From Thermodesulfobacteriota bacterium (GTDB lineage: Bacteria > Desulfobacterota > BSN033 > UBA1163), in assembly GCA_036769565.1 (NCBI GenBank), contig DAIPKW010000001.1, forward strand, positions 44,416 through 108,415: 64,000 nucleotides of DNA. Reading direction: 5' to 3'. Below the pieces are notes generated by a model. That model had not been told where the DNA came from and searched no databases. It saw nothing but the letters and a program-made list of their open reading frames with translations. Of this stretch, positions 2,509 to 54,228 are shown piece by piece. The stretch's first letter is position 1; every line of letters starts with the position of its first letter. A program made the translations under genes and the position numbers.

Positions 2509-2509
2509 A

Positions 2510-2701
2510 ATGGAAGGAACGAGTTTTTACCAATGCCCCCTTTGTGGGACAAGGTTCTCAGGTACGGAGATGACCTGCAAAGGATGTCTCCTCTCGAAGG
2601 AATGCAATCTGCTCTGTTGCCCCCATTGCGGATATTCTTATAAGGAACGCTCTGCGCTGGTAGATTTTTTCAAAACGTTATGGAGGAAGAAAAAACCATG
2701 A
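2510..2701 (+). CDS. Small Cys-rich zinc-ribbon-like protein in the feo operon
   Basis: 63 aa with two CxxC pairs plus further Cys residues and no TM segment. Sits 2 bp after the feoB stop and overlaps the dtxR start. No identifiable FeoA. Could be a FeoC-like or FeoB-associated small protein. Confidence 0.4.
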   Translation: MEGTSFYQCPLCGTRFSGTEMTCKGCLLSKECNLLCCPHCGYSYKERSALVDFFKTLWRKKKP

Positions 2702-7052: not shown

Positions 7053-8189
7053 TCATATTGGAGGGGGATTTTCAAGGACAGGAGAAAAGGGATTGGCAAT
7101 ACAAGATATTCCAAAACTATGAGCAACGCCTTCGCAGACGACCGCTCCATCGATCAGATTTAACCCTTTACGCAACGCTTCATTCTCAGTCAAGGCCTTC
7201 TCATATCCCAGATCTGCCATTTGAAGGATGTAGGGGAAAGTGGCATTGGTGAGGGCAAAGGTGGCGGTTCTCGGATAGGCCCCTGGAATATTGGCAACGC
7301 AATAATGGACGACCCCTTCCTCAGTATAGGTGGGGTTTTCATGCGTTGTCGGTCTTGACGTCTCAAAACAGCCACCTTGATCCACGGAGACATCAACAAT
7401 GACTGAGCCGGGCCGCATTCGACTCAGCATCTGACGTGTCACCAATTTGGGCGCTTGGGCGCCTGGGATAAGAACCGCTCCGATCACAAGATCGGCATCT
7501 GCAATCTCTTCGCTGATGGTCATCCGGTTGGAGATAAAAGTGGTGATATGGCCCTGGGTGATATCATGGAGATAACTGAGCCTTTCAGGTCGCACATCGA
7601 GAACAGAGACCCGAGCTCCCATACCCACAGCGACTTTGCAGGCATTGGCACCGACAACACCTGCACCGAGAATGACCACTTTGGCCGGTGGAACGCCTGA
7701 GGCGCCACAGAGGAGGACGCCTCTTCCGCCATATCTCGATTCAAGACACATCCCGCCTGCAAGAATGGAGGCCCTGCCTGCAATCTCACTCATTGGTCTG
7801 AGCAAAGGAAGCGTACCGTCCCGCTCCTGAACGGTTTCATAACCGATACCAACGATTCTTGAGGATAATAATGCCTTGGTAAGAACCTTACTGGCAGCAA
7901 GATGAAGATAGGTAAAGAGAACTTGCCCTGGCCGGAGCAAAGGAAATTCCTGTTCTTGGGGTTCCTTCACCTTCACAATGAGATCAGCCTCTCTCCATAT
8001 TCGCCTCACATTCTCAATCAGGATGGCTCCGGCTCTTTCATACTCTCCATCACTGAAGCCGCTTCCCTCTCCTGCACCCATTTCGACCAAGACCTTATGA
8101 TGATGCGAAACTAGGGCATCCACTCCCTGAGGAGTCATGGCGACCCGCCTCTCTCCTTCTTTGATCTCTTTTGGAATTCCGATGATCAT
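7053..8189 (-). CDS. ald: Alanine dehydrogenase
   Basis: 378 aa. MIIGIPKEIK..ERRVA.TP N-terminus and the GAGVVG NAD-binding motif. Near-collinear with Bacillus Ald. Confidence 0.9.
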   Translation of the reverse strand: MIIGIPKEIKEGERRVAMTPQGVDALVSHHHKVLVEMGAGEGSGFSDGEYERAGAILIENVRRIWREADLIVKVKEPQEQEFPLLRPGQVLFTYLHLAASKVLTKALLSSRIVGIGYETVQERDGTLPLLRPMSEIAGRASILAGGMCLESRYGGRGVLLCGASGVPPAKVVILGAGVVGANACKVAVGMGARVSVLDVRPERLSYLHDITQGHITTFISNRMTISEEIADADLVIGAVLIPGAQAPKLVTRQMLSRMRPGSVIVDVSVDQGGCFETSRPTTHENPTYTEEGVVHYCVANIPGAYPRTATFALTNATFPYILQMADLGYEKALTENEALRKGLNLIDGAVVCEGVAHSFGISCIANPFSPVLENPPPI

Positions 8190-9391
8190 GCGGGACCTCC
8201 AACAGGGCGGGCGGTCAACTGTTTTGCGACAAAATCAACCATCTCTTCCGTTGCCTTCGAAAACTCTTTCGCCGTAGCGATCATGGCTGTATGTGAGACA
8301 AACTCATCTGGCGTCAATCCATCCTCTGCATAAGCCCTCTCAAAATAGGGAATTCGCAATAACCGATCGAGAACAGATCTGGGGATTTCCTCATCGATCT
8401 GGGAGGTGAATTCAGTCCCGTCCAAATGTTCCAACACTCCCTCAATAAAGGTAGGTGGGCAGGTGAATACAATATCGCCACCTGCCAATTTCTCCAAATG
8501 CCAGCAATGTTTCTTCCCGTCCATCTCTGGGCTAATCCTCATGGAGCAGATGAGCATCTTGCTCGGATATCCCCTCTCTTTTAAGAGTCGGTAAGCCTTC
8601 TTGAAAATGGCGATCTCAGCCCAACGGACATCCGCCTCGGAGAGGGGAATATGGAGCGTCTCCGCCTCCTTTCGAAGATCTCCCAGATCGCCATATCGTG
8701 CCGTCATATGGGTGATCACAGAACGCCAGCGAGATAGATCAACGCCATTCTGTTTGGCAATCTCCAGTCCTTCTTTGACCGCCTTCGCACAAGCCATCAG
8801 TTGGGGAAGAACAAAGGTGAGTGTATTATTCGTTGAAATTCCCTTCGATGTGAGAAACCGAATGACCTCATACCCTTCCTTGCTTCCTGGAACCTTAATC
8901 ATCACATTGGGGCTGAGGCTTGCCAGCTCCAGGGCTTGCGAAATCATCCTCTCTTTGTTTGTCAAATTTCGAGGGTCAACCTGTCCTGAAAGATATCCAT
9001 ACCGGTATCCGGACTGGTTAAAAACCTCCAGATACATCTCCGCCCCTCTTCGGACAATCTCCTTATAGGTCATCCAAAAGAGCGATTCTTTGTCAACCTC
9101 AGGGTTTCTTTCAATCAAGTCGCGAATGATTTCGTTCACGAACGATTCTCTTGCCTTGATCACCCCCAGGGAAAGGGGAGGGTTGGTCGTTACACCTCGA
9201 AAGAGGGTTCTGCCAGGAGCCTCTGGGTCGTAGAGCCTCTTCAATTGCTCCTGTAACTCATCCCTCTTTTCAGCGGAGGCCTTCTTCAGGACACCCTCCA
9301 TCCATGAAGCATAGACCAGTGGAGAAGAATCCCACCAGATCTCCAAGCCTGGATGAGTCTTCATCAACTTTTCAAGAGGGGTCGGTTTCAT
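8186..9391 (-). CDS. tal: Transaldolase family protein, long form
   Basis: 401 aa. VTTNPPL and the Schiff-base IKVPGSKEG...TNNTLTFVLPQLMACA block align to TalB active-site regions. 4-bp overlaps with both neighbours. Confidence 0.7.
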   Translation of the reverse strand: MKPTPLEKLMKTHPGLEIWWDSSPLVYASWMEGVLKKASAEKRDELQEQLKRLYDPEAPGRTLFRGVTTNPPLSLGVIKARESFVNEIIRDLIERNPEVDKESLFWMTYKEIVRRGAEMYLEVFNQSGYRYGYLSGQVDPRNLTNKERMISQALELASLSPNVMIKVPGSKEGYEVIRFLTSKGISTNNTLTFVLPQLMACAKAVKEGLEIAKQNGVDLSRWRSVITHMTARYGDLGDLRKEAETLHIPLSEADVRWAEIAIFKKAYRLLKERGYPSKMLICSMRISPEMDGKKHCWHLEKLAGGDIVFTCPPTFIEGVLEHLDGTEFTSQIDEEIPRSVLDRLLRIPYFERAYAEDGLTPDEFVSHTAMIATAKEFSKATEEMVDFVAKQLTARPVGGPA

Positions 9392-10500
9392 ACCCGTTTC
9401 TCCTTCTTTCTTTTTTCAAAGAAACGCTTGATCGCTGAGACACAGAGGGAATTCTCCTCATGGGTGCCAAGACTGATACGGAAAAAACCGTTCCTGCCCC
9501 GAAAAGGAGCAAAGCATTTGAGCATGGCCCCAGCCTTCTCAAAAACGTAGTCAACCACTTCTTTTCCGGTCGCTCCCGCATCCGTGGCGTCGATGAACAC
9601 ATAATTGCCATGAGAATAATAAGGTTTAACCCCTGGAATCTTGGCTAATTCCTTGCAGATATATTCAACTCCTGCATTGTTGTAAGCGGCCTTCCGCCTC
9701 AACTCTTCCTCCTCCTCGAGAGCCGCTTCGGCGGCAGCAATCGACAGAAGACTCGTATTCCAGGGCACCTGCATCTTTCGAAAATATCCGATCAATTCCT
9801 CATCGGCTAGGGCATATCCAAACCGGATCCCTGCCATTCCATACGCCTTTGAAAAGGTATGGGAAACAAGGATGTGATTGTATTTCCGAACCAAAGGGGC
9901 TTTTGACTCATGCTCGGGATGATACTCCAGATAGGCCTCGTCGATCATCGTGGGGATTCCAAGCTCAACGATCTTCATCAGATCTTCATCGGGGATGAAA
10001 TCACCGGTTGGGTTGTTGGGCGTACAGACGATGATCAGTTTGGTGCGAGGGGTGACAGCACGGAGCATGGCGGCCACATCATACTGGAGATCGGGTGTGA
10101 GATCGACAGCCACAACCTTCCCCCCAACCGCTCTAGCCCGAATCCCAAAAAGGGAGAAGGTGGGGTTGGGAAGAAGCACCTCATCTCCTGGCGTGACGAA
10201 GAGCCTCATGACCATATCGATGATCTCGGATGAGCCATGGCTGATATAGACATTCTCCGGTCCGAGGTCATACCGTTTAGCGATCTTCGCCCTCAGGCGA
10301 GGCCCATTGTCAGGATAGCGGTTTCCCATTTTCGCGGCTTCTACGATGGCTTGAATGACCCTCTCTGAGGGAGGAATGGGGTTTTCATTAACCATCATCC
10401 GTTTGAGCTCTGGCCGAGACCAGGCAAGGACGAGGTCTTCTGTATCATAGGGTTTGACCTGATCAATCCATGGAACCAGATAACGCTTCAAATCGCTCAT
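9388..10500 (-). CDS. Class I/II pyridoxal-phosphate aminotransferase, HisC-like
   Basis: 370 aa. VNENPIPP...NPTG...SHTFSKAYGMAGIRFGY pattern of histidinol-phosphate/aromatic aminotransferases (PLP lysine in SKAYG). Confidence 0.75.
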   Translation of the reverse strand: MSDLKRYLVPWIDQVKPYDTEDLVLAWSRPELKRMMVNENPIPPSERVIQAIVEAAKMGNRYPDNGPRLRAKIAKRYDLGPENVYISHGSSEIIDMVMRLFVTPGDEVLLPNPTFSLFGIRARAVGGKVVAVDLTPDLQYDVAAMLRAVTPRTKLIIVCTPNNPTGDFIPDEDLMKIVELGIPTMIDEAYLEYHPEHESKAPLVRKYNHILVSHTFSKAYGMAGIRFGYALADEELIGYFRKMQVPWNTSLLSIAAAEAALEEEEELRRKAAYNNAGVEYICKELAKIPGVKPYYSHGNYVFIDATDAGATGKEVVDYVFEKAGAMLKCFAPFRGRNGFFRISLGTHEENSLCVSAIKRFFEKRKKEKRV

Positions 10501-10603
10501 AAACCCTCCTCATTCTTTATTTCAAATTTCAAATTGAATTTCTGTGTTTTACGGTACAATCTGCAATCTGAAATTTTAAATTTGAAATTTTTCTTACCTA
10601 ACT

Positions 10604-10619
10604 ACCTATCTATACAGGT
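10604..10619. promoter_or_regulatory. Site A of the repeated imperfect palindrome ACCTRTCTATRCAGGT. Candidate operator upstream of the aminotransferase-tal-ald operon
   Basis: acctatctatacaggt lies 18 bp downstream of a minus-strand TTGACA. The same 16-mer class recurs at 15817-15836 and 22518-22533. Confidence 0.45.
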
Positions 10620-10651
10620 AACAAGGAAAATTTTTTTTGTCAAGCCCGCTG

Positions 10652-11413
10652 TCAGCCCTCTAAATCGTATCGGTATTTCCCCGACTCCACTTCGAAGATG
10701 TACTTGTCCCCACGGTGAAAGGCATGGAGGACCTCTACAGGGATGTTTTTCGCATCGTAGATCACGCTTTCGAGAAAGATTCCTGGAGAACGGGGAGGGA
10801 CTTCCAACAACCTGGCATCCTCGTTGGATAGAAGGATGGCCCGAAAGGTCTGAATCGATCGGTGAAGCTCCACGTGAAACTTTTTGGTGAGGAGGTGATA
10901 GAGCGAACCCGTCAAACGCATTTTCAAAATGGCTTTATACTCCTGATGGGGAAGGTAACTCCTTTCGATGACCAATGGGATCCGATTTCCCAAGCGGAGT
11001 CGCTCGGTGAGAATCACCAGTTTCTCTTTTCCCAACATCAGTTTTTCGGCGACATCCGATGGTGCCTCGATCACAGACTTGTTGAGAAGTCGGGTCTGTG
11101 GAGTTACTCCCATCTTGATCATATCATCCGTAAAACTGGAGATGTGCTGAAGGGTATATTTGACAGGTTGAATGGCCCGACGGATCACAAAGGAACCCAC
11201 CCCATTCTTCTTCAGAACAATCCCTTTGGCCACGAGATCGGAAATCGCTTGCCGGACCGTGTTGCGATTGACCTGAAAGAGTTCGGCCAGTTTTGACTCC
11301 GAGGGGAGTTTATCGTTTACGGTATAACGCCCCTTCTGGATCATCTCGATAAGCCATTGGCTGATCTGAAGATATTTGGGAACGCCCGGATCGAGTTGAA
11401 ATGTCTCTGCCAT
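10652..11413 (-). CDS. GntR family (HutC subfamily, UTRA effector domain) transcriptional regulator
   Basis: N-terminal winged HTH YLQISQWLIEMI...LPSESKLAELFQVNRNTVRQAI plus a C-terminal UTRA-like domain. The start at 11413 has an AAGGAAAG RBS. The ORF extends to 11443. Confidence 0.8.
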   Translation of the reverse strand: MAETFQLDPGVPKYLQISQWLIEMIQKGRYTVNDKLPSESKLAELFQVNRNTVRQAISDLVAKGIVLKKNGVGSFVIRRAIQPVKYTLQHISSFTDDMIKMGVTPQTRLLNKSVIEAPSDVAEKLMLGKEKLVILTERLRLGNRIPLVIERSYLPHQEYKAILKMRLTGSLYHLLTKKFHVELHRSIQTFRAILLSNEDARLLEVPPRSPGIFLESVIYDAKNIPVEVLHAFHRGDKYIFEVESGKYRYDLEG

Positions 11414-11459: not shown

Positions 11460-13226
11460 CTATTTCGATGAAACCATTCCCGTCAAACCAGACCGACCGG
11501 TGATGATCCTCATAACGAGAAGCGCTCCTACGACGATTGCCACCACAACCGTGCACATGGCATTGGCACTGGCCGTTCGACCATCCACATCGAGAAAGAT
11601 GATCTCAATGGCCGCCAGCTTGATCGTCGCAGAGATGAGAAAGATGACCGCGCTGATCGTCGTCATGGCCCTCATGAAGAAGAAGGTGGCTGTTGAGAGA
11701 AAAGCCACTCTTGAAAGGGGAAAAACCACCCTTGTAAAAGTCGAAATCGGTCCGGCGCCGAGACTCAAAGCAGCCTCCTCGATCGATTTATCAATCTGTT
11801 TCAAATTAGCAATGCTCGTCAGCACCCCAAGAGTAAAATTGCAAATGATGATGTTGATGATGATGATCCAGATCGTCCCATAGATGAAAAAGTATGGCTT
11901 GTTAAAAGCCAGGACATATCCCAGCCCCATCACCACGCCAGGGATGGCCGCAGGTAATACGCTCAAGGTATAGAGCACCTGTTCTCCTCGCGGTTTCTTC
12001 TTCTCAATGATATAACCTGCGAGGAGAGTCAAGGAAGCGCCGGCAATGGCTACAACGATAGAAACCATAAGGCTTGTCCAGATCGGCGCATATTTATAAG
12101 CGATCATCGTTCGAAAGGTGCTTTCAGGAAGAATCGATACCCAGAAGTTTGTCCAAAGAGGTGCATGGGCTCCCAAGGATGGAAAGTCGAAATGTCGGAG
12201 GGTCAGTGAAAAATCATAGGGCCAAGTTTTTACAAAAGACCCCAAAAAGACAGTGGCAAAAACGATGAGAATGCAAGCACAGATCAATCCACAATAGATC
12301 GTAAATCCTATCTTTTTGAGAGGTCGAGAGGGCTGCAGAAAGGGTCTGGCCTGGCCGCTGATCAGGGCATAGCTTTTTCGTGTCAAGTAATAGTTGATGA
12401 CGAAGGCGGTGATGGAGGGGATGAGGAGAATGACGCTGATCGTGGCTCCAAGGTCGAAACGCTGTAACCCAAAGACCTGTGAGACAATCTCTGTGGCGAG
12501 CACGGAGTAATTGCCTCCGATCACCACGGGGATTCCAAAATCGGTGATCGTGAGGTTAAAGGTCAGTGCCGCCGCACTGGCAATCCCATACTTCGCCGAA
12601 GGAAGGGTTACCTTCCAGAAGGTCTTCAGCGCAGAAGCTCCCAAACTCTGGGCGGCCTCGTCCAATCGGGTATCCACCGCAGAGAGGGTTGTGTAGAGGA
12701 TGAAGAGGGCATTCGGAAAGCAGTAGAGGCATTCTCCCACAATAATGCCTGTGGCTCCATAGATGTTCCAGTCCGTGCCCAAGAGATATCGAGTGATTAG
12801 CCCGTTTCTCCCAAAGAGGAGGATGAGGGCCAAGGCCTGAATAATGGTCGGAGCAATCAGAGGGAAAGTAGAAATCGTATAAAAAATTCCTTTGCCTGGC
12901 ATGGTTGTTCGGGTCAACCCATAAGCGAAAAAGAAGGCAGTTACCGTGGTGATGATCATCGTAACCACAGAGACAAACATGCTGTTGGTGAACGACCTGA
13001 AGATCCGCGGGCTTGAAAAATAGGCCACATAGTTTTGGAGGGTAAACTTCCCTTCCTTTAAAAAACTGAGCCGACAGATGTCCATCACTGGATAGAGAAG
13101 AAAAAACGCAAGAAGGGCTAAGAAGAAGAAAGTGGCGATGCCCGTGGCGATCCTATCCGAACCCAAGGCGAGGGTTGAAAAAGACGAGGAAACTCCGTAA
13201 GAAGGGCTAACCTCCCGATGATTCAT
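11460..13226 (-). CDS. ABC transporter permease, fused double-domain (FbpB/ThiP/PhnU2-like)
   Basis: 588 aa with two repeated six-TM permease modules. This is the fusion type typical of Fe(III), thiamine and putative 2-aminoethylphosphonate importers. Confidence 0.8.
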   Translation of the reverse strand: MNHREVSPSYGVSSSFSTLALGSDRIATGIATFFFLALLAFFLLYPVMDICRLSFLKEGKFTLQNYVAYFSSPRIFRSFTNSMFVSVVTMIITTVTAFFFAYGLTRTTMPGKGIFYTISTFPLIAPTIIQALALILLFGRNGLITRYLLGTDWNIYGATGIIVGECLYCFPNALFILYTTLSAVDTRLDEAAQSLGASALKTFWKVTLPSAKYGIASAAALTFNLTITDFGIPVVIGGNYSVLATEIVSQVFGLQRFDLGATISVILLIPSITAFVINYYLTRKSYALISGQARPFLQPSRPLKKIGFTIYCGLICACILIVFATVFLGSFVKTWPYDFSLTLRHFDFPSLGAHAPLWTNFWVSILPESTFRTMIAYKYAPIWTSLMVSIVVAIAGASLTLLAGYIIEKKKPRGEQVLYTLSVLPAAIPGVVMGLGYVLAFNKPYFFIYGTIWIIIINIIICNFTLGVLTSIANLKQIDKSIEEAALSLGAGPISTFTRVVFPLSRVAFLSTATFFFMRAMTTISAVIFLISATIKLAAIEIIFLDVDGRTASANAMCTVVVAIVVGALLVMRIITGRSGLTGMVSSK

Positions 13227-14308
13227 AGCTCAACCTCTTCGTCTGGATAGACCAGAAAAGACTCCGGAGGAAAATAGAGGAGAATCTCATCACCCTGTTT
13301 GAACCCTCTCTGCTCAAAGGTCTTCTCAATGATATCGGAGATCACCTCTTCTCCATCCATATTAACGACCAGTCGGACAGCCGCTCCTAAAAAAGTGACC
13401 ACGTCGATTCTGCCAGGGATCAAATTGGAGGCGGCGAGGTGATGGGTCGGTTCTCCGAGCCGGAAGACCTCAATCTTCTCCGGCCGGATGGCGAGAATCA
13501 CCTTCTCTCGAACGGAATGACTTCCCTGAGCAACCACGAATTCCCGTCTCTCTGTCTTCACATGGTCATTGATCCGAAGGCCCTTAAAAAAGTTGGAGGT
13601 CCCTACAAAGTCGGCCACAAAGTTTGAACTTGGGCATTTATAGATATCGATGGGTCTTCCCACCTGTCGAAACTGTCCCTTCTCCATCACGACCACTCGA
13701 TCAGCAATCGAAAGGGCCTCTTCCTGATCATGCGTGACATAGATCATCGTCTTTTTCAATTCCTGTTGAAATCGTTTAATCTCCGCTCGCAGGCGAACTC
13801 TGATCTTGGCATCTAGTGCGCTCAAGGGTTCATCTAAAAGCAGAACCTGTGGATCGGGTGCCAAGGCCCGGACCAGTGCGACCCTCTGTTGCTGTCCTCC
13901 ACTTAGCTGTGCTGGATAGAGTTTTCTCCAATCCCTAAGCCCCACAAGGTCCAACATCTCATCGACTCGGCGGGCAATCGCCTGCTTATTCATCTTTCTC
14001 ATCCTGAGACCAAAGGCAATATTCTCTTCCACAGTCATATTGGGAAAGAGGGCATAAGATTGGAAGACGATCCCAAATTCCCTCTTCTGTGGGATGAGAT
14101 GATTAATTACCTTACCATCGAAGATAACATTCCCTTCGGTCACGGTCTCAAATCCAGTAATCATCCTGAGGACTGTGGTCTTTCCGCAGCCGCTTGGCCC
14201 AAGGAAGCAGATAAATTCTCCTTCCTCGATTTCAAGATTGACCCGGTCCACAGCCGTAAGCGTTCCATAGCGTTTTGTGAGATTCTCCAATCTGAGATTT
14301 CGCCCCAT
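13223..14308 (-). CDS. ABC transporter ATP-binding protein with C-terminal TOBE domain (PotA/FbpC family)
   Basis: 361 aa. Walker A GPSGCGKTT, signature LSGGQQQRVAL, Walker B LLLDEP and a C-terminal TOBE-like region. Confidence 0.85.
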   Translation of the reverse strand: MGRNLRLENLTKRYGTLTAVDRVNLEIEEGEFICFLGPSGCGKTTVLRMITGFETVTEGNVIFDGKVINHLIPQKREFGIVFQSYALFPNMTVEENIAFGLRMRKMNKQAIARRVDEMLDLVGLRDWRKLYPAQLSGGQQQRVALVRALAPDPQVLLLDEPLSALDAKIRVRLRAEIKRFQQELKKTMIYVTHDQEEALSIADRVVVMEKGQFRQVGRPIDIYKCPSSNFVADFVGTSNFFKGLRINDHVKTERREFVVAQGSHSVREKVILAIRPEKIEVFRLGEPTHHLAASNLIPGRIDVVTFLGAAVRLVVNMDGEEVISDIIEKTFEQRGFKQGDEILLYFPPESFLVYPDEEVEL

Positions 14309-14554
14309 CTTTCTATCCTGCCCTTAGGAAATTCTTATCTCCCCTCTAAAGTAACACCATCCAGCCTCCCCTTATAACTCTCCTCCTTCCCCCTCTTATC
14401 ATAAGAGGGGGAAAATAGATGCGGGTGTTAGATTGGGAGATGTGGAGGGGTTAAAAGGGAGAAACCACCCCCACCAAAGTCAGAACAACCTAAATTACAA
14501 AGGAAAAACTGATGAGCTGTCTATAAAGCTTTTAATGAAATTTGGATTCTTTGT

Positions 14555-14608: not shown

Positions 14609-15619
14609 TCATTTCAAGAAGAGGCTCTCCCACTTCTTCAGGATCTCATCCCGATTCTTTGCCTGCCAGGCAAAATCCATTGGATAGAGTTTGATTTCGG
14701 ATAGTTTGGGAAGGTCCGGTCGCGTCGGAATGCCAGGGAGAGTCACTCCATATTTGAACTTTGAATATTCTCTCATTGCGCTTTCGCTGATCGCCCAATC
14801 GAGAAACTTCTTGGCCGCTGCCACATTCTTTGCCCCTTTGAGAAGGGCATTGGCTTCCACTTCATAGCCCGCTCCTTCAATGGGGAATACAAATTCAACT
14901 GGGAACCCCTGTTTTTTTTGCTCTGCCACCACAAAGTCGAAAGAGGCGCCTACTGCGAATTCACCAGCCGCAGTCATCTTGGCAGGTCTTGATCCGCTCT
15001 TAATATACTGGCCCATATTCTTATCCAGTTTCTTTAGAAATTCCCAGCCATCCTCTTTTCCCTCTTTAGCCCCATACATCTGGAGAATGCTTGAAACCTG
15101 GAGAAACCCTGTTCCTGAAGCAACTGGATTAGGCATGGCAATCAATCCCTTAAATCTCGGATCGAGTAGGTCGTTCCACCCTTTGGGCATTGGAAGCCCT
15201 TTCTCTTTTAAAACCTTTGTGTTCACACAGAAGGCGGCAATATACATATCAATTCCCACATAGGCAAATCCTGGATGAACAAACTTTTTCTCCAGCTTCT
15301 CAACGCCTTTGGGCTTATAGGGTTCTAGCATTCCCTTAGCAACGAAATCCTCCATGTTTGTGACTGCCCATCCCCAGATGAGATCTGCTTGTGGATTGGC
15401 TCGTTCGGCTAACATTCTGGCCCCAAGTTCCCCTGTGGAAAGCCGAATGACATGGATTTCGAGGCCTGGAAGATCCCTGAGATAGGCTTCTCGATATTTA
15501 TCAATCTCATCTGTCTCTAAGGAGGTGTAAACGACGACCTTCTCCTTAGCCATCACATTCCCTGAAAGAAAGATCACCAATAAAAGACTTACCATCAACA
15601 TCCACCCTCTTCGCTTCAT
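14609..15619 (-). CDS. Periplasmic substrate-binding protein, family 1 (Fe(III)/2-aminoethylphosphonate/polyamine type)
   Basis: N-terminal signal peptide MKRRGWMLMVSLLLVIFLSGNVMA. FbpA/PhnS-like fold signature. The start at 15619 has a perfect AGGAGG RBS 7 nt upstream. The ORF extends to 15661. Confidence 0.8.
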   Translation of the reverse strand: MKRRGWMLMVSLLLVIFLSGNVMAKEKVVVYTSLETDEIDKYREAYLRDLPGLEIHVIRLSTGELGARMLAERANPQADLIWGWAVTNMEDFVAKGMLEPYKPKGVEKLEKKFVHPGFAYVGIDMYIAAFCVNTKVLKEKGLPMPKGWNDLLDPRFKGLIAMPNPVASGTGFLQVSSILQMYGAKEGKEDGWEFLKKLDKNMGQYIKSGSRPAKMTAAGEFAVGASFDFVVAEQKKQGFPVEFVFPIEGAGYEVEANALLKGAKNVAAAKKFLDWAISESAMREYSKFKYGVTLPGIPTRPDLPKLSEIKLYPMDFAWQAKNRDEILKKWESLFLK

Positions 15620-15760
15620 ATGCTTTACCTCCTGTGTATTTGAAATGATTGCATTCAACAACCCTATCCAATAAATTTAAGATTTCTCACCCCCCTTCTT
15701 TAGCTGTCGTTTTTAAAGGTTCGCGATCAATGATAAATTTTATATCGAACCCAAAACTTT

Positions 15761-15799
15761 TTGTCAATCCTTTTTTGTTCAAAAAAGATTGACAAAATA
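15761..15799. promoter_or_regulatory. Near-perfect 18-bp inverted repeat containing TTGACA on both strands. Divergent promoter or candidate GntR-family operator
   Basis: TTTTGTCAATCCTTTTTT-gttc-AAAAAAGATTGACAAAA lies between the divergent binding-protein and DMGDH-family genes. On the minus strand TTGACA is followed after about 17 bp by TATAAA. Confidence 0.45.
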
Positions 15800-15816
15800 T
15801 CTTTTTTCAATTAGTC

Positions 15817-15836
15817 CTGTCTGCATAGATAGGTAG
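15817..15836. promoter_or_regulatory. Site B of the repeated palindrome, in reverse orientation
   Basis: cctgtctgcatagataggta reverse-complements to tacctatctatgcagacagg. It shares a 15/16 core with site A and lies about 20 bp downstream of TTGACA at 15790-15795. Confidence 0.4.
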
Positions 15837-16069: not shown

Positions 16070-18487
16070 ATGAAAAATCAGGCGCGCGTGGTCATCATTG
16101 GAAGTGGAATCACGGGCTGCAGTATCGCCTACCATCTTACAAGAATGGGATGGAACGATGTCATCCTTCTTGATAAAGGAGAGCTCACCAGCGGTGCCAC
16201 TTTTCATGCGGCCGGGTTGGTGGGCCAGTTGCGGGCGTCCGTCAATATCACAAAGATGCTCAAATACAGTGTCGAACTCTATTCAAGGCTGGAAGAAGAG
16301 ACCGGACAGCACACAGCATGGAGCCCTGTAGGTGGTCTCCGGATCGCCTCTTCAAAAGACCGAATGGAGGAATTGCGTCGCTCTGCTGCAATGGCAAAGA
16401 CTTTTGGTCTTCCCATGGAACTGATCAGTCCGAAAGAGGCTTGTGACCTCTTCCCGGTCATGACAAAAAAAGGAATCGTTGGGGCCGCCTTTCTTCCCAC
16501 AGATGGTCAGATCGATCCGAGCGGTGTGACCTATGCCCTAGCTCAGGGAGCAAGAAGCAGAGGGGCAACCATCTATACGGATACCCGTGTCACTGGGATC
16601 AGATTGAAGAATGGTGCTATTGATGAGGTCCTCACAGAAAAGGGAAATATCAAAGCAGAAATTGTAGTCAACGCCGCAGGGATCTGGGCTCCAGAGATTG
16701 GAAAGATGGTGGGCGTTGCCATTCCACTCATCCCCATGGAGCACCAGTATATCATCACAAAACCGATCGAAGGAGTAAAAAAAGGAATGCCCACGATGCG
16801 GGACCCTGACCTTTTGGTCTATTTCCGCGAGGAATTGGGTGGTCTCATCATGGGTGGTTATGAACACAATCCCATCCCATGGGCTTTGGATGGTATTCCC
16901 AAAGACTTTACCAAAACACTTCTCAAATCGAACTACGAACATTTCGAACCCCTCTCTGCTTTAGCCATGAAGAGGGTGCCCTGTATCGGTGAGGCTGAAA
17001 TCATCACCCTTCTTAATGGTCCAGAGGCTTTCACCTCGGACGGCGACTTCATCATGGGAGAATCACCAGAGGTGAAAAATTTCTTCGTTGCTGCTGGTTT
17101 CTGTGCCCATGGCATTGCGGCTGCAGGAGGAGTGGGCAAAATGATGGCCGAATGGATCATCGAGGGAGAGCCGAGTCTCGATCTCTGGCGTCTCGATATC
17201 CGACGTCTCGGTCCCCACCATCGAAGTCAGACCTACACAGTCCACAGAGCGATAGAAATTTATGCCCATCACTACTCCATGAACTGGCCCTATGAAGAGA
17301 TGATTTCAGCAAGACCTCTTCGAACAAGCCCCCTTTATGAGCGACTTAAAAAGGCAGGAGCCGTTTTGGGCGAAAAGTATGGCTGGGAACGGCCCAACTG
17401 GTTTGCGCCGAAGGGAACGCCTCCAAAAGACAGACTGGGTTGGGGCCTACCAAATTGGTTTGATCATGTCGGGAAAGAACACGAGGCGGTTAGAACAAGG
17501 GCGGCCGTCATTGATCAGACCTCCTTTGGAAAGATCGACGTGAAAGGCCCTCGGGCGCTCCAGTTCCTTCAGAAGTTAACCGACAATCAGATGGAGAAAC
17601 CGATTGGTTCAACCACTTACACTCAGATGCTCAACGAAAGGGGAGGGATCGAGTGTGACCTAACGGTGAGCCGAATTAGCGAAGACCATTTCTATCTTGT
17701 AACAGGAACCGCTTTTATTAAACACGACCTTCAGTGGCTAAAAAAACATCTGCCTTCAGATGGCTCTGTCTCAATCGAAGATATCACTTCTTCTAAGGCC
17801 TGTATCACACTCTGTGGGCCAGAGTCTAGAAATATTTTGAAGCAACTGACCAGAGACGACATCTCAAATGAAGGATTCCCATACATGACCTGTAAGGAGA
17901 TAACCATAGGTAATGCTGCTGTCCTTGCCATCCGGATTACCTATGTGGGCGAATTGGGATGGGAGTTACATGTACCCACAGAATACGCCTTGCATCTCTA
18001 CGATCAATTCTGGGAGGTGGGAAAACCTATTGGCTTGGTCAATGCCGGTTACCGATGCATCGACTCCCTGCGGCTGGAGAAGGGATATCGTTACTGGAGC
18101 GGAGACATCTCTCCAGAATATACGCCTTTTGAGGCTGGACTCGATTTCTGTGTAAAATTGGACAAAGGTGACTTTATAGGCCGCAAAGCCCTTCTAACTC
18201 AGAAAGAAAAAGGATTAACTCGCAAACTCTGTTGTTTTACGATCGATTCAGGCCCACTGATGCCAGTTGGTAAAGAGGCCATCCTGGATGGAGATAAAGT
18301 AGTTGGCATTGTTACCAGCGGAGGATTCGGACACACGATCAAAAAACCCATTGCCTTGGGATACCTTCCCATGGATTATTCAAAACCGGGCACCCGATTG
18401 CAGATCGAAGTAGCCGCAAAAAGATACGAAGCCATCGTCGAAAAAGAGCCTCTCTACGACCCGGAAAATAAAAAGGTGAAGGGGTAA
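16070..18487 (+). CDS. FAD-dependent oxidoreductase fused to an aminomethyltransferase (GcvT) domain; dimethylglycine/sarcosine dehydrogenase family
   Basis: 805 aa. N-terminal GSGITGCS.A..L dinucleotide fold (DAO domain) and a C-terminal GcvT-like folate-binding domain. Substrate unknown. Confidence 0.75.
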   Translation: MKNQARVVIIGSGITGCSIAYHLTRMGWNDVILLDKGELTSGATFHAAGLVGQLRASVNITKMLKYSVELYSRLEEETGQHTAWSPVGGLRIASSKDRMEELRRSAAMAKTFGLPMELISPKEACDLFPVMTKKGIVGAAFLPTDGQIDPSGVTYALAQGARSRGATIYTDTRVTGIRLKNGAIDEVLTEKGNIKAEIVVNAAGIWAPEIGKMVGVAIPLIPMEHQYIITKPIEGVKKGMPTMRDPDLLVYFREELGGLIMGGYEHNPIPWALDGIPKDFTKTLLKSNYEHFEPLSALAMKRVPCIGEAEIITLLNGPEAFTSDGDFIMGESPEVKNFFVAAGFCAHGIAAAGGVGKMMAEWIIEGEPSLDLWRLDIRRLGPHHRSQTYTVHRAIEIYAHHYSMNWPYEEMISARPLRTSPLYERLKKAGAVLGEKYGWERPNWFAPKGTPPKDRLGWGLPNWFDHVGKEHEAVRTRAAVIDQTSFGKIDVKGPRALQFLQKLTDNQMEKPIGSTTYTQMLNERGGIECDLTVSRISEDHFYLVTGTAFIKHDLQWLKKHLPSDGSVSIEDITSSKACITLCGPESRNILKQLTRDDISNEGFPYMTCKEITIGNAAVLAIRITYVGELGWELHVPTEYALHLYDQFWEVGKPIGLVNAGYRCIDSLRLEKGYRYWSGDISPEYTPFEAGLDFCVKLDKGDFIGRKALLTQKEKGLTRKLCCFTIDSGPLMPVGKEAILDGDKVVGIVTSGGFGHTIKKPIALGYLPMDYSKPGTRLQIEVAAKRYEAIVEKEPLYDPENKKVKG

Positions 18488-18512: not shown

Positions 18513-19271
18513 TTATCTGAAAAACCTTAAGTCATGGATGGAATGAACGACGAGATCAGCCACCTTCTCCAATTCTTCCCTCGGAGTCACACCTCCCTCA
18601 AGAATCCCGATAGTTAATGCAACCCCTGCCCTCTTCCCCATGATCATGTCTGTTACCGAATCCCCTACCATCACCGTCTCATGGGGAGAAACCGAGAGCT
18701 TTCGACAGATGGTGAAGATCGTTTCAGGATGGGGTTTGGCCGGGTTCACCTCTCCCCAGCAGAGGACCATATCGAATAAAGTATCCATTCTGAGGTGATT
18801 AAGAATTGCTTCTGTATCTTTACGCTCATCATTCGTTGCCAGGGCTGTTTGAAATCCAATCTTCTTAAGTTGAGAGAGGAAATCTTGAATGCCTTCAATT
18901 TGGACAACATTCTTCCGCCAATCATCATCTCCGTCTGCTTCATCAAAGGCCTGAGCAACCCATTGTTTTGCTTCATCCCAAGGGTATCCATGCTGATAAA
19001 GCGCCATCGTCCCAATAATGATCTCATCCGACCGAGGGGAAACGGGACAGGGCCCCCTTGGATCGACCTCTCCACTAACCGGATCGATTCCCCATGATCT
19101 TAGGAGAAAGGCTTCCAACTCCCCGTCCTTCCCCAGCCTTTTTAAAACAGAAGAGACCCGCTTTCGGATCAAAGGGATCCAGGTTGCAGAAAAATCGATC
19201 AGCGTTCCATCCTTATCAAAAATGATTAAACGACATGGAACCTTTTTCTCTCTATGGAATATGCCTGTCAT
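18513..19271 (-). CDS. HAD superfamily hydrolase, subfamily IA
   Basis: Motif I IIFDKDGTLIDF and motif IV VGDSVTDMIMGKRAG. The canonical DxDGT argues against PhnX, which has DWAGT. Confidence 0.7.
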   Translation of the reverse strand: MTGIFHREKKVPCRLIIFDKDGTLIDFSATWIPLIRKRVSSVLKRLGKDGELEAFLLRSWGIDPVSGEVDPRGPCPVSPRSDEIIIGTMALYQHGYPWDEAKQWVAQAFDEADGDDDWRKNVVQIEGIQDFLSQLKKIGFQTALATNDERKDTEAILNHLRMDTLFDMVLCWGEVNPAKPHPETIFTICRKLSVSPHETVMVGDSVTDMIMGKRAGVALTIGILEGGVTPREELEKVADLVVHSIHDLRFFR

Positions 19272-19373: not shown

Positions 19374-21305
19374 ATGAGCGGAAAACGATTTCAGTCTGAA
19401 ACAATGGATGAAGCATCGATCAAGAAACTTGCAGCATTAGCCAGGTTGGCCCGGGGTGATATCTTGAAGATGACGACCCTGGCCGGCTCCGGTCATCCTG
19501 GCGGATCCATGTCATCCATTGATTTCTATCTCGTCCTCTACTCCTATGCCAATATCGATCCCAAACATCCAGACGATCCAGACAGAGACCGAATTATAAT
19601 CAGCCATGGTCACACCTCTCCGGGAGTCTATGCCGCCCTTGGGAGGACGGGTTTCTTTCCGATCGAAACCGCCATTGTCAACTTCCGTAAAGCGGGTAGC
19701 CCTTTTGAGGGCCATGTGGAAAAAGGAATTCCAGGACTGGAATGGAATACCGGTAATCTCGGTCAGGGGCTCTCGGCAGGATGCGGTTTCGCCTTAGGTG
19801 CAAAGGTCCTTATGAAGGATTTCCATGTCTTTGTCGCCATGGGTTGTGGAGAACAGCAGAAAGGCCAGATCAGCGAAGCCAGGCGCTTTGCCATCAAATA
19901 TGGTCTTGATAATCTTACCGTGATTATTGACTACAACAAAAGGCAGATCAGCGGGATCACTGGAGAGATCATGCCCCAGAATATCGCTAAAAATTTTGAA
20001 TCGGATGGATGGCGAGTGCTTGAAATTGACGGCCACCAATTTCAGGAGATCTATTCTGCCTTTCGGGAAGGCCTCTTTTCAAAATATCCCACAGCCATCA
20101 TTGCCCATACAGTGATGGGAAAAGGGGTCTCCTTCATGGAAGGGAAAGAGGATTTTCACGGTAGAGCTTTGAACATGGACGAGTATCAGAAAGCGATTCA
20201 AGAACTCGGCGTGGAGGACGATTTAGATCATTATCGTCAACGACGTGAGGGGAATACCCTCCCTTATGAAGGAAGGAAATATTCAATCCCGCCTCTCCAT
20301 ATTCAACCCGGAACTCCAAGGGATTATGGAAAGGATGTGAAGACCGATAATCGCTCTGCCTTCGGAAACGCTCTGGTTGATCTGGCAAAAGCCAATCTCT
20401 GTCAGGACGGTACCCTTCCGATCGTCGTCTTCGATTGCGACCTGGCTCCCTCGACAAAGACAACCGCCTTTGCCAAACAATTTCCAAACCATTTCTTCCA
20501 GGGCGGAATCCAGGAGCATCATACGGCCACACTTGCTGGAGCAATCTCTACTCTCGGCCTCCTCTCATTCTTCGCGGACTTCGGGGTCTTCGGCATTGAT
20601 GAAACCTATAATCAGCACCGGCTCAATGATATCAATGAGACGAATCTGAAATTGATCTGTACGCATAATGGCCTTGATGTGGGTGAGGATGGGAAAACGC
20701 ATCAATGTATTGATTATATTGGCATCATGAGAAATCTCTTTGGGTACAGGATCATCATTCCGGCGGATCCCAATCAGACGGACCGTGTGATTCGATATAT
20801 TGCAAAGGCAGAAGGAAACTTTCTGATAGCCATGGGGCGCTCCCCAATACCCACTATCCTTACAGAAGATGGAATCCCCTACTTTGCAACACCTTATGAG
20901 TTCCAATATGGGAAGGCAGATCTGATACGAAATGGAGATCAGGCCTCCATCGTTACCACAGGCAGCATGGTCTTCAGGGCAGTGGAGGCATGGAGGAAAT
21001 TGAAAGAGAAGGGAGTGGAAGTCCAGGTCCTCAATATCTCGTGTTTGAGCGATCTCGATCTTGATGCCATTCTCAAAGCCGCACATACTGGAAGACTGAT
21101 CACCTATGAAGACCATCATGTGCAGACTGGTCTGGGAAGCCTCATCGCCAATGTTATTGCAGAACATGGTTTGCCAGTTCGCCTCCGTAAATTGGGAATC
21201 ACCCGATATGGTAGCTCTGGGAAACCAGAGGACCTCTACCGGATGCAGGGGCTTGATGTGGATAGCCTTGTGAATGTTGTCATGGAAGAAGTCGAAGGGA
21301 TTTAG
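19374..21305 (+). CDS. tkt: Transketolase
   Basis: 643 aa. GSGHPGGSMS thiamine-diphosphate motif, SHGH, central pyrimidine-binding and C-terminal domains. The alternative start at 19404 is also possible. Confidence 0.8.
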   Translation: MSGKRFQSETMDEASIKKLAALARLARGDILKMTTLAGSGHPGGSMSSIDFYLVLYSYANIDPKHPDDPDRDRIIISHGHTSPGVYAALGRTGFFPIETAIVNFRKAGSPFEGHVEKGIPGLEWNTGNLGQGLSAGCGFALGAKVLMKDFHVFVAMGCGEQQKGQISEARRFAIKYGLDNLTVIIDYNKRQISGITGEIMPQNIAKNFESDGWRVLEIDGHQFQEIYSAFREGLFSKYPTAIIAHTVMGKGVSFMEGKEDFHGRALNMDEYQKAIQELGVEDDLDHYRQRREGNTLPYEGRKYSIPPLHIQPGTPRDYGKDVKTDNRSAFGNALVDLAKANLCQDGTLPIVVFDCDLAPSTKTTAFAKQFPNHFFQGGIQEHHTATLAGAISTLGLLSFFADFGVFGIDETYNQHRLNDINETNLKLICTHNGLDVGEDGKTHQCIDYIGIMRNLFGYRIIIPADPNQTDRVIRYIAKAEGNFLIAMGRSPIPTILTEDGIPYFATPYEFQYGKADLIRNGDQASIVTTGSMVFRAVEAWRKLKEKGVEVQVLNISCLSDLDLDAILKAAHTGRLITYEDHHVQTGLGSLIANVIAEHGLPVRLRKLGITRYGSSGKPEDLYRMQGLDVDSLVNVVMEEVEGI

Positions 21306-21434: not shown

Positions 21435-22454
21435 ATGGACATTCTCATCTTCGATATGGATGGGGTTTTGATTGATGTGACGCAGTCTTACCGTAGAACC
21501 ATCCAGAAGACCATTCATATCTATCTTGAACAATGTCTTGGGCTAAAGGCAAATCGGGTCTCCCCAGAAGACATCTCTCTCTTCAAGTCTGCAGGAGGAT
21601 TTAATAACGATTGGGACCTTACTTCAGGATTCCTTCTCTATCTGCTTTCTACCTCAAAAGTCCATCCCCTCCCAGTAAAGAAGTTCTCTTCCTTGGACAA
21701 AATCGTACTCCATCTTCGACAGCAGCTAACCGGATTCCGTCAAAGAAGACCTGTCTCTTTGAAAAGGAATCACCTTTCTTCTTTTTTGGAGCAGGTGAGG
21801 ATATCCGGAGGAGGATTGAAGGGGATTCGGTCTGTTCTCGACAGATGTTGGGATGGGTGGATCTACCGATCCGGAAATCTCGCCAAAGAAAACCTTATAA
21901 AACGGATCTTTCAAGAGATCTACCTCGGCGAAAAATTTTCTTCCCTTTATCACCTTCCTTGCCTTTTCTACCATGGAAAGGGGCTATTTCTGCGAGAGAA
22001 ACTTCTCATTGAAAGAAATGTTCTTGCATCCCTTCGGAGAAAGATGCGATTGGGAATTGCCAGCGGTCGTCCAAAATTCGAAGCGGAGCTTGCCCTGAAG
22101 CGATTCCGGATCTTCCCATACTTCGATAGTGTGGTCACCCTCGACGAATGCGAACAAGAGGAAGCGAAAATCTTCAAAGAAACCCGTAGGAAGATCAGGC
22201 TCTCAAAACCCCACCCCTTTTCCATTCTCAAAGCGATCGAGGAGATCGGCATTCCAAATCCCCAATGCGGATATGTCGGTGATGTGGTCGATGATGTGTT
22301 GGCAGCTCAGAGGGCAAAAAAGAAGGTGCGGATGCTTGCCATCGGTTTTGCCGTAGATGGAGGGAATAAAAAGAGAGCCAGAGAAACTCTGTTAAAAGCT
22401 GGGGCTGATTACGTCATTGAAAACCCCCAACAACTCCTTGATCTCGCCGTTTAA
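21435..22454 (+). CDS. HAD superfamily hydrolase with large cap insertion
   Basis: Motif I IFDMDGVLID and motif IV GYVGDVVDDVLAAQRA, with an insertion of about 200 aa between them. Confidence 0.6.
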   Translation: MDILIFDMDGVLIDVTQSYRRTIQKTIHIYLEQCLGLKANRVSPEDISLFKSAGGFNNDWDLTSGFLLYLLSTSKVHPLPVKKFSSLDKIVLHLRQQLTGFRQRRPVSLKRNHLSSFLEQVRISGGGLKGIRSVLDRCWDGWIYRSGNLAKENLIKRIFQEIYLGEKFSSLYHLPCLFYHGKGLFLREKLLIERNVLASLRRKMRLGIASGRPKFEAELALKRFRIFPYFDSVVTLDECEQEEAKIFKETRRKIRLSKPHPFSILKAIEEIGIPNPQCGYVGDVVDDVLAAQRAKKKVRMLAIGFAVDGGNKKRARETLLKAGADYVIENPQQLLDLAV

Positions 22455-22489: not shown

Positions 22490-22533
22490 TTGACAATCCT
22501 CACCATTATCCCTTATAACCTGTCTATACAGGT
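22490..22533 (+). promoter_or_regulatory. pit promoter (TTGACA-17-TTATAA) with site C of the palindrome ACCTGTCTATACAGGT overlapping the -10/+1 region
   Basis: TTGACA at 22490-22495, TTATAA at 22513-22518, palindrome at 22518-22533. Confidence 0.5.
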
Positions 22534-22695
22534 AAACCTCTTTAGGAAGTCTATGACTTTCAAAAAGTCTCGTTTACACCCAAAAAGAAGTTTGGCTTCG
22601 CACGGGGCAAGCAACAGAACTTTCTAAAGGGAGGAATGGCTTTGGACAGGGGGTTTTAGATCGAAACTTCGATTTTATTTGCAGTCATCTTAGTC

Positions 22696-23685
22696 GTGGG
22701 CTTGGCTCTTTTCTTCGATTACTCGAACGGTTTCCATGACGCCGCCAATGTGGTCGCCACCATCATTGCCACGGGAGCGATGGGGCCCCGAAGCGCCCTG
22801 GGGCTTGCAGCGATTGCCCATTTTATCGGACCTTTCCTCCTTGGCACGGCCGTGGCTCAGACGATTGGTAAAGGAATCATTGATATCTCGGCTTTCGATC
22901 CAAACCTGATCGGAATTTCGATCTCCCTGGTCATAGCCGCACTGATTGGCGCCATCGCCTGGAATCTGATCACCTGGGCCTGGGGGCTTCCCTCCAGCTC
23001 CTCCCATGCCCTCGTGGGTGGAATGATCGGCGCCGTCCTGATCGCTTATGGACCGGATAAAGTCATCTGGAAGGGCCTTCTCTATGTGGTCTCCGTCTTA
23101 ATCTTCACTCCCGTTTTAGGTCTGATTTTTGGCACTCTGTTTCTGAGGATCACTTTTCGCCTTTCCCATAAGGCACCTCCTCAGATATCCCATTTTTTTA
23201 ACCGAATTCAAATATTCTCCTCTGTGGCCCTCTCCCTAAGTCATGGTGCTAATGATGCTCAGAAATCGATGGGCCTCATCACCATGTCTCTCGTTATCCT
23301 CGGAGTTTTCCCGGATTTTCATATTCCTTTCTGGGTGATCGCCAGCTGTGCGGCTGCTATTGCTTTGGGCACAGCGAGCGGTGGTTGGCGAATCATCAAA
23401 ACCTTAGGCTCAAAGATCTACCATCTGAGATCAGTCCATGCCTTCTGCGCTCAGACCAGTTCAGCCATCGTCATCCTGACGGCAGCACTCTTAGGGGGAC
23501 CTGTGTCAACAACGCATGTCGTCTCCTCAAGCATTATGGGCGTAGGTGCTGGTCAAAGACTCTCTGCCGTTCGGTGGGGAGTAGCCAAGAATATCATTCT
23601 GGCTTGGTTCATCACCATCCCTGCCTCAGCAGTCATGGCAGGACTCAGTTTCTATTTGATCAGGATGGCGCATCCGAGTTTTTAA
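22696..23685 (+). CDS. pit: Inorganic phosphate transporter, PiT family. The N-terminus is interrupted by an in-frame TAG (see findings)
   Basis: NGFHDAANVVAT and GANDAQKSMG PiT signature repeats. The in-frame upstream segment MALDRGF-TAG-IETSILFAVILVVG encodes the expected TM1. The ORF as called starts at GTG 22696. Confidence 0.8.
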   Translation: MGLALFFDYSNGFHDAANVVATIIATGAMGPRSALGLAAIAHFIGPFLLGTAVAQTIGKGIIDISAFDPNLIGISISLVIAALIGAIAWNLITWAWGLPSSSSHALVGGMIGAVLIAYGPDKVIWKGLLYVVSVLIFTPVLGLIFGTLFLRITFRLSHKAPPQISHFFNRIQIFSSVALSLSHGANDAQKSMGLITMSLVILGVFPDFHIPFWVIASCAAAIALGTASGGWRIIKTLGSKIYHLRSVHAFCAQTSSAIVILTAALLGGPVSTTHVVSSSIMGVGAGQRLSAVRWGVAKNIILAWFITIPASAVMAGLSFYLIRMAHPSF

Positions 23686-23699
23686 AGAAAAGGAGTAAA

Positions 23700-24332
23700 A
23701 TGATGGTATTCGATTTTCTCAGAAGAAAGAAACCTTTTTCAGGCAGTGAGAATCGCTTCTTCGATCTGCTTTCCCGGCAATCTGCTAAAAGCATCGAAGG
23801 GCTGGAAGCCCTTGCCAATTATGCTGAAAATGGGACGAAGGAAAATGCCAACTTGGTTCGGAATATTGAAAGGGAGGCGGATGAACTGAGGCGGATTTTG
23901 ATCCAGGAACTGGATCAGACGTTTATCACGCCCATCGACCGGGAGGACATCTATCAGCTCTCACGGGCAATTGATGATGTCGTGGACTATGCGAATACAA
24001 CGGTCGATGAAATGGAAATTTACGAGGTCAAGGGAGATTCTCACATAAAAGAGATGGTCAATATCCTCCGTAAAGCGGCACGGGAGCTAAACGATGCGGT
24101 CAAAATCCTTAAAGATTATCCCAAGATCGCCTCGGAACATGCTGTCAAAGCCAAGTCCTACGAAAACCAGATGGAGAAAGCCTACCACGTGGCGCTCGCT
24201 GAGCTCTTTAAGGGAACCGATACGGTCTATATGCTGAAGATGCGAGAGATTTATCGCCATCTTAGCAATGCCGCTGACCGGGGGGATGAGGCGGCCAACA
24301 TCATCTCCAGCATCGTGATGAAACACACTTAA
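23700..24332 (+). CDS. DUF47 family protein (PhoU-like partner of PiT transporters)
   Basis: 210 aa. AAGGAG RBS then ATG at 23700. Helical PhoU-like protein immediately downstream of pit, a conserved pairing. Confidence 0.75.
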   Translation: MMVFDFLRRKKPFSGSENRFFDLLSRQSAKSIEGLEALANYAENGTKENANLVRNIEREADELRRILIQELDQTFITPIDREDIYQLSRAIDDVVDYANTTVDEMEIYEVKGDSHIKEMVNILRKAARELNDAVKILKDYPKIASEHAVKAKSYENQMEKAYHVALAELFKGTDTVYMLKMREIYRHLSNAADRGDEAANIISSIVMKHT

Positions 24333-54147: not shown

Positions 54148-54228
54148 TGAAAATAGCTCCTGACATTGGATATACGACAAAGAAAGAGATGTCATCCGTC
54201 TGTCATCCATAAAGTAAACCTCGCTTAT

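Follow-up and report, generated by a model that had tools for sequence, protein, structure and literature searches.

Regulators of the HutC subfamily of GntR proteins recognize short palindromes with the consensus NyGTMTAKACNy, in which the GT and AC of a GTMTAKAC core stand 4 nt apart, with weaker extra half-sites 7-12 nt off the centre (PMC4494728). The footprints of Pseudomonas HutC centre on TGTA-N2-TACA and comprise three half-sites, with higher-order oligomers being formed (PMC12977541). NagR (YvoA) of Bacillus subtilis and DasR of Streptomyces, which join a GntR winged helix to a UTRA domain, act on the dre operators, 16-bp palindromes with a GT-N-TA-N-AC core placed over promoters, and a phosphorylated effector lifts their repression. 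In the structure of NagR bound to DNA, the two G's of the TGGT half-site are read by Arg48 and Arg38, the second G by Arg38, while Gly69 anchors the wing (PMC4333415).

In the 64-kb stretch of DNA analysed here (referred to below as the window), the palindrome ACCTGTnTAnACAGGT recurs at the promoters of a gene cluster that encodes a regulator of this type. On the basis of sequence comparison, we consider this palindrome to be, very probably, the operator of that HutC-subfamily GntR repressor. A first-pass annotation of the window had stated that the regulator was not evident within it; this does not hold, since a GntR+UTRA gene lies inside the cluster, behind O(atp), and accompanies the sites in every related genome. 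The positions of the genes, promoters and operators are collected in Table 1.

Table 1. Features of the regulated cluster and its surroundings (positions in the window; gaps are counted from TTGACA to the 16-mer)
Feature	Position	Strand	Remarks
fur-family gene	89-538		metal module, 89-3414
feoB	535-2508		metal module
DtxR-family repressor fused to FeoA domain	2680-3414		metal module; Pfam
Alanine dehydrogenase (ald)	7053-8189	-	above equivalog cut-off
Divergent transaldolase-family protein (tal)	8186-9391	-	401 aa; NCBIfam/Pfam
HisC-like aminotransferase (hisC)	9388-10500	-	NCBIfam/Pfam
hisC-tal-ald target operon	7053..10500	-	gene order 3' of operator conserved in relatives
O(hisC)	10596..10619	-	ACCTGTATAGATAGGT (10619 to 10604) and adjoining third half-site AGTTAGGT (10603 to 10596)
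-35 box TTGACA, hisC-tal-ald promoter	10638..10643	-	invariant across all relatives; gap 18 nt
GntR+UTRA regulator (hutC)	10652-11413	-	253 aa; last gene of atp-perm-hutC unit
Fused ABC permease (perm)	11460-13226	-	best NCBIfam among PhnT2/PhnU2, below curated cut-off
ABC ATPase (atp)	13223-14308	-	best NCBIfam among PhnT2/PhnU2, below curated cut-off
O(atp)	14515..14530	-	AGCTTTATAGACAGCT on transcribed strand; predicted operator of atp-perm-hutC
-35 box TTGACA, internal atp promoter	14557 to 14552	-	directly after hairpin; conserved; gap 21 nt
Terminator-like hairpin 3' of sbp	14580 to 14562	-	terminator scan; conserved in relatives
Solute-binding protein (sbp)	14609-15661	-	
TATAAA, sbp promoter	15744-15739		
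TTGACA, sbp promoter	15767-15762		
-35 box TTGACA, DMGDH-like gene promoter	15789..15794	+	gap 20 nt in the orthologous register
O(dmgdh)	15815..15834	+	TCCTGTCTGCATAGATAGGT; degenerate copy in this genome
DMGDH/sarcosine-oxidase-like N-demethylase (dmgdh)	16070-18487	+	FAD oxidoreductase fused to GcvT folate-binding domain; Pfam DAO, FAO_M, GCV_T, GCV_T_C
HAD hydrolase (had1)	18513-19271	-	
Transketolase (tkt)	19374-21305	+	
Second HAD protein	21435-22454	+	
-35 box TTGACA, pit promoter	22490..22495	+	gap 22 nt
-10-like TTATAAC, pit promoter	22514..22520	+	overlaps operator left edge; TTATA kept in relatives
O(pit)	22518..22533	+	ACCTGTCTATACAGGT; best palindrome, exact GTCTATAC core
pit, Pit-type phosphate transporter	22696-23685	+	Pfam PHO4 2e-93
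DUF47/PhoU_div protein	~23700-24332	+	Pfam PhoU_div 4e-19

The three near-identical 16-bp palindromes reported in the first-pass annotation are all real. Those at 10604-10619 (ACCTATCTATACAGGT) and 22518-22533 match the palindrome ACCTRTCTATRCAGGT exactly, and that at 15819-15834, ACCTATCTATGCAGAC on the minus strand, matches it with two mismatches. Three distinct sites with at most two mismatches in the window compare with 0.04 expected from dinucleotide shuffles, none of 100 shuffles equalling this number; with up to three mismatches allowed, there are 7 strand-matches against 0.69 expected. Every site with at most two mismatches is intergenic, as had been claimed, and the matches within open reading frames, for example at 37225-37240 in a 325-aa ORF, carry three mismatches and stand at chance level. 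The count of three overlooked a fourth site, AGCTGTCTATAAAGCT (O(atp)), a three-mismatch match which is situated in the sbp-atp intergenic region, 3' of a terminator hairpin and of its own TTGACA, and which is kept in relatives. The register originally given for the second site is off by 4 bp: the orthologous one is 15815-15830, TCCTGTCTGCATAGAT, where relatives have TCCTGTCTACATAGGT. Two substitutions, central TA to TG and AGGT to AGAT, distinguish the window copy, which is the weakest site in the genome, with three mismatches to the palindromic consensus whichever register is used. A 4-bp CTAT duplication at this site was considered and dropped, the fixed-register alignment revealing two substitutions and no insertion. 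Judged by their sequences, O(dmgdh) and O(atp) of the window, both degenerate with three mismatches each, may be bound weakly. In every operator class, an extra right half-site (AGTTAGGT, AAACAGGT or AGGTAGCT) directly adjoins the palindrome, bringing the total to three half-sites, as is known for Pseudomonas Phut (PMC12977541); such a layout has been reported for other GntR-family motifs too. Through it, a third subunit or a second dimer may be brought to the operator.

All four sites are found 18-22 nt 3' of a perfect TTGACA on the transcribed strand. With standard sigma-70 spacing, the 16-mer would span approximately -12 to +8, covering the -10 element and the transcription start, and this agrees with the earlier placement of the first three sites over -10/+1. 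The gaps of sites 1, 2 and 3 measure 18, 20 and 22 nt. P(hisC) (TACCTG/TTGTTA) and P(dmgdh) (TAGTCC) have poor -10 elements, so the promoter assignments depend chiefly on conservation and on the TTGACA, which is invariant. The promoters that bear operators went uncalled in a consensus promoter scan, whose rule their -10 hexamers are too weak to satisfy. The position of P(atp), directly after the terminator-like hairpin of sbp, predicts that atp-perm-hutC has an operator-controlled promoter of its own and that the regulator is autoregulated. Site 2 had been assigned to both sbp and the DMGDH-like gene. The second half of this assignment stands, the site being oriented toward the DMGDH-like gene; the first does not, for sbp has a separate promoter, about 50 bp downstream of the site, in which TTGACA and TATAAA are separated by a 17-nt spacer, GTTTCGATATAA, conserved in all relatives. 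No HutC-type operator overlies the sbp promoter, and sbp may be expressed constitutively or be controlled by another factor. The divergent -35 boxes of sbp and dmgdh are contained in a near-perfect inverted repeat of 39 bp (15759-15797). The divergent region between had1 and tkt is free of operators. The pit leader (22534-22695) exceeds that of relatives by about 90 nt, which are inserted between operator and ribosome-binding site, and has no Rfam match; an Rfam scan of the whole window returned no family, so that the long 5' regions of pit and dmgdh contain no riboswitch or leader of a known type.

The regulator was used to scan species-representative genomes, yielding 34 loci, 22 of which belong to close relatives with conserved gene order (most of their regulators 79-91% identical). 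All 22 have both the regulator gene and the sites, with one site preceding the regulator-containing unit. The four intergenic regions vary widely in length and sequence, and what they conserve is TTGACA, the operator block and the ribosome-binding site, the region after sbp additionally keeping the terminator hairpin and an ATTAAA -10-like element. Thus, the hutC-hisC regions (151-585 bp) are otherwise unalignable, their only conserved blocks being cTTGACAaa, GTTACCTGTATAGATAGGTAGTTAGGTA and the ribosome-binding site; the window and 19 of 21 relatives (20 of 22 sequences) share an identical O(hisC) 16-mer, which deviates by one base in loci L016 and L017 and always starts 18 nt after TTGACA. 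Between sbp and atp, the hairpin, TTGACA, gATTAAAa and ACCTaTtTAGACAGGT followed by AAACAGGT are conserved, the site beginning 21-23 nt after TTGACA, and the hairpin stem shows compensatory changes in relatives, both sides matching. Upstream of dmgdh, the conserved elements are TTGACAAAA, a spacer, caATTAg and TCCTGTCTACATAGGT, the relatives' site reading TCCTGTCTACATAGGT or ACCTGTCTACACAGGT, always with a 20-nt gap. The pit upstream region conserves ATTGACA, a spacer, TTATA and ACCTGTCTAyACAGGT, with gaps of 20-22 nt, and O(pit) is kept 5' of pit in L016, L017, L031 and L034. Flanks that have diverged around sites that have been kept indicate that the sites are under selection.

A search of the window and the 22 close loci (363,861 bases) with the palindromic consensus ACCTRTNTANAYAGGT returned 27 exact and 16 one-mismatch matches, where first-order Markov simulations predict none of either kind; coming from homologous loci, these 43 matches are not independent events. 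All 43 are intergenic and sit at the same four orthologous positions. The comparison of orthologous intergenic regions, proposed as a check in the first-pass annotation, thus bears out the sites, which are conserved upstream of orthologous operons in the 22 close and some 10 distant loci. In the distant loci, the regulator is 46-50% identical and the context is the same (ABC transporter, hutC, then tal/ald/hisC/dmgdh). The ACCT/AGGT flanks are absent there; TGTATATACATCT occurs exactly at 11 intergenic places, oriented with transcription, 5' of hutC, atp, sbp, tal, ald or hisC, and the core of these sites is exactly TGTATATACA. It follows that the 10-bp core and its link to the regulator gene survive deep divergence. 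In some of the distant relatives (L029; L022, L026, L027), the transaldolase-like gene is missing or the AlaDH family is represented by two genes. Among the close relatives, L016 and L017 carry the outer flank AGCT, not AGGT, at all three operator classes that they possess (10863/11019, 7080/7083 and 1493/1849 in L016/L017), as does O(atp) of the window; no change in the helix-turn-helix or wing of their regulators was found to account for it.

The regulator itself has the architecture of the HutC subfamily, an N-terminal GntR winged helix-turn-helix (Pfam GntR, 2.1e-19, residues 24-86) and a C-terminal UTRA effector domain of the chorismate-lyase fold (1.3e-32, residues 111-248). Homologues of 253 aa with 80-91% identity come from metagenome-assembled genomes of uncultured Thermodesulfobacteriota, Syntrophaceae and Deltaproteobacteria, and the nearest solved structures are NagR/YvoA (E 1e-29) and DasR (2e-24). 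When the sequence is aligned with NagR, the DNA-contacting Arg48 and Gly69 correspond to Arg50 and Gly71, while Arg38 is replaced by Ser40, a change that fits a cTGT half-site instead of TGGT. The recognition helix, VNRNTxRQA, is identical in the close and distant regulator groups; the Arg38 equivalent is Ser in the close group and Ile/Leu in the distant one, and the wing reads NGVG versus KGMG. The operator motif belongs to the same class as its presumed reader. Its core, GTCTATAC or TGTnTAnACA, fits both the HutC-subfamily consensus (PMC4494728) and the TGTA-N2-TACA of Pseudomonas HutC (PMC12977541), contrary to the earlier statement that the motif matched neither known consensus; O(pit) has this core exactly, and the other sites and the orthologues are off by 1-2 bases in one arm. 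A metagenomic match, ACCTGTATATACAGGT, lies directly 5' of a bona fide hutF gene, which shows that genuine hut promoters, too, employ this class of motif.

Comparison with the individual characterized systems nevertheless sets the locus apart from each of them. With the NagR/DasR systems it has in common the GntR-plus-UTRA architecture and 16-bp palindromes with a GT-N-TA-N-AC core over promoters; it departs from them in that the half-site is CTGT where dre has TGGT, the outer flanks are ACCT/AGGT, Ser40 stands in place of Arg38, and the targets are not those of a GlcNAc or chitin regulon, there being no nag or chitin genes; relief of repression by a phosphorylated effector, known for NagR and DasR, is here only proposed. 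With Pseudomonas HutC and Phut, the locus shares the subfamily, the core, operators overlapping the promoter and three half-sites, but the regulator scores 92.4 bits against the HutC equivalog TIGR02018 (cut-off 220), which denies it HutC identity, the cluster contains no hut genes, and the effector pocket appears suited to phosphate rather than to urocanate. Among the NCBIfam matches of the regulator, PhnF and PhnR rank second and fourth, the adjoining ABC transporter is PhnS2/T2/U2-like, and pit-DUF47 and the HAD hydrolases supply a link to phosphate; however, the scores of 123.7 bits for PhnF (TIGR02325, cut-off 156.8) and 110.7 bits for PhnR (TIGR03337, cut-off 296.75) fall short, and no phn catabolic genes (C-P lyase, PhnW, PhnX or PhnA) were found in the cluster, so that neither name applies.

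That the sites are operators of a different transcription factor, be it the DtxR-family protein of the window or a regulator whose gene lies elsewhere in the genome, appears improbable. The first-pass annotation had named both the HutC-type and the DtxR-family protein as candidates. A DtxR-family gene is indeed present, detected by Pfam where a regular-expression search for the DtxR helix gave no match, and the view is limited to 64 kb of the genome. This gene, however, belongs to the fur/feoB metal-uptake module, 7 kb off and beyond rpsA-ispH-cmk, and is unlinked to the sites, and the motif has the GT-N4-AC core of HutC-type operators; the verdict on DtxR rests on this location and on the HutC-type motif. 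Against any outside factor, a HutC-type gene is found inside the regulated cluster in every relative, the distant ones included, where the flanks of the motif have changed alongside the helix-turn-helix and wing residues of the regulator. Of the two earlier candidates, it is thus the HutC-type protein that motif class and linkage support. A paralogous HutC-type regulator of the same specificity, or further targets, may lie beyond the window.

It is more improbable still that the conserved block is promoter-intrinsic or acts as RNA, for example as a 5' hairpin, a discriminator or an initial-transcribed signal. The arms can form a 6-bp stem with a 4-nt loop, and L016 and L017 have altered both arms symmetrically, from ACCT/AGGT to AGCT/AGCT. 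Sigma-70 geometry, on the other hand, would place the left arm at or upstream of the -10 element, hence outside the transcript; sequence and not pairing alone is kept over four non-homologous promoters, with the TA at the centre and the GT/AC typical of HutC sites among the kept positions; pairing is broken in several conserved sites of the atp class (for example ACCTTT...ACAGGT); and the window has no Rfam match. We attach a similarly slight probability to the idea that the regulator binds these sites yet activates, or both activates and represses. Some GntR/HutC proteins, NagR of Bacillus thuringiensis among them, are reported to be dual regulators (PMC6141813), and O(dmgdh) precedes the -35 box of sbp by about 50 bp, which is compatible with activation of sbp. 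Yet each of the four sites is in the classic position for occlusion, over -10/+1 of a promoter whose -35 box is perfect, and L016, L017 and L031, in which dmgdh is not beside sbp, keep the sbp promoter with no operator. The position of the sites and the usual behaviour of the family together argue for repression by promoter occlusion.

Operators of the HutC-type repressor, as we interpret them, would function as follows. In the absence of effector, a repressor dimer would bind each palindrome, with one winged-helix domain per half-site, and the adjoining half-site may bring in further subunits. Lying over the -10 element and the transcription start, the bound repressor would block RNA polymerase at four promoters, P(hisC-tal-ald), P(atp-perm-hutC), P(dmgdh-like) and P(pit-DUF47), the second of which would place the regulator under its own repression. 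A small molecule bound to the UTRA domain would lower the affinity for the operators and derepress the cluster.

To judge from these sequences, the four sites look like a small, dedicated, local regulon. The first-pass annotation had also proposed a dedicated regulon, and its proposal gains from the recurrence of the same four intergenic positions in relatives and from a wider search. In metagenomes, the pattern TTGACA-N17-24-ACCTGTNTANACAGGT gave 78 matches, followed in 41 cases by homologues of pit or DUF47, in five by hisC, in three by dmgdh, in one by atp and in one by another HutC-type gene (49% identity). The remaining 27 were at contig ends or in unrelated sequences (phage-like or repeat DNA, true hutF), and no new regulon target appeared among the 78. 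In two metagenome contigs (L037 and L112), ACCTGTCTACACAGGT recurs in tandem repeats of about 50 bp (cacctgtcc...gcaggtg...aacctgtctacacaggtt) with no ORF following; these are unrelated repetitive DNA, caught only by the pattern match.

The regulator and the transporter both offer clues to the effector. All six residues that coordinate phosphate in NagR (Thr90, Arg133, Arg135, Ser165, Ile166 and Tyr167) have counterparts in the window regulator (Thr95, Arg138, Arg140, Ser170, Leu171 and Tyr172), in the close and distant groups alike, while the sugar-contacting residues are kept only in part (Tyr228 to His, Arg211 to Ser). The solved structure nearest to the binding protein is AfuA (E 3e-43), followed by P5PA (E 2e-35), and the 2-aminoethylphosphonate binder is distant (E 1.5e-8); AfuA binds hexose and heptose phosphates and P5PA binds PLP (PMC4546632, PMC8427247). 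The best NCBIfam models for the transporter are PhnS2/T2/U2 (putative 2-aminoethylphosphonate ABC transporter), all of them below cut-off. Its substrate is probably a phosphorylated organic compound. The conserved phosphate residues, the AfuA/P5PA-like binding protein and the predicted co-regulation of pit-DUF47 together suggest that the effector is probably a phosphorylated metabolite, most likely a substrate or intermediate that the AfuA-like ABC transporter imports.

The enzymes of the cluster, a HisC-like aminotransferase, a transaldolase-like protein, alanine dehydrogenase, a DMGDH-like N-demethylase, two HAD hydrolases and a transketolase, make an unusual set, and a literature search for this combination found no description of such a cluster. 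Elsewhere in the window (53419-55710), a GAF-ANTAR RNA-binding antiterminator-type regulator (53419-54147) precedes a split UPF0261 pair (54509-55114 and 55072-55710).

As a tentative proposal, which we regard as possible but doubtful, the operators may mark a previously undescribed module of catabolism that is widespread among uncultured Syntrophaceae-like Desulfobacterota and in which one NagR-like repressor senses a phosphorylated intermediate. If true, an amino compound that is phosphorylated and possibly N-methylated would enter through an AfuA-like ABC importer; the enzymes of the module would be an N-demethylase linked to folate, a HisC-like aminotransferase with alanine dehydrogenase coupled to it and a divergent transaldolase-family enzyme, and a co-repressed Pit/PhoU-like phosphate transporter would handle the released phosphate. 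The assignment of operator to regulator is testable, and is made for a lineage without cultured representatives. It would bound the co-regulated set to the transporter, the N-demethylase, the aminotransferase, Ald and transaldolase-like enzymes and Pit-DUF47, and this regulon, with its likely phosphorylated effector, narrows the search for the substrate. The switch itself, standard in its regulatory logic, would be conceptually ordinary for GntR/HutC biology; the interest, and the novelty if the proposal is true, would reside in the pathway that it controls and in the coupling of that pathway to a Pit phosphate transporter.
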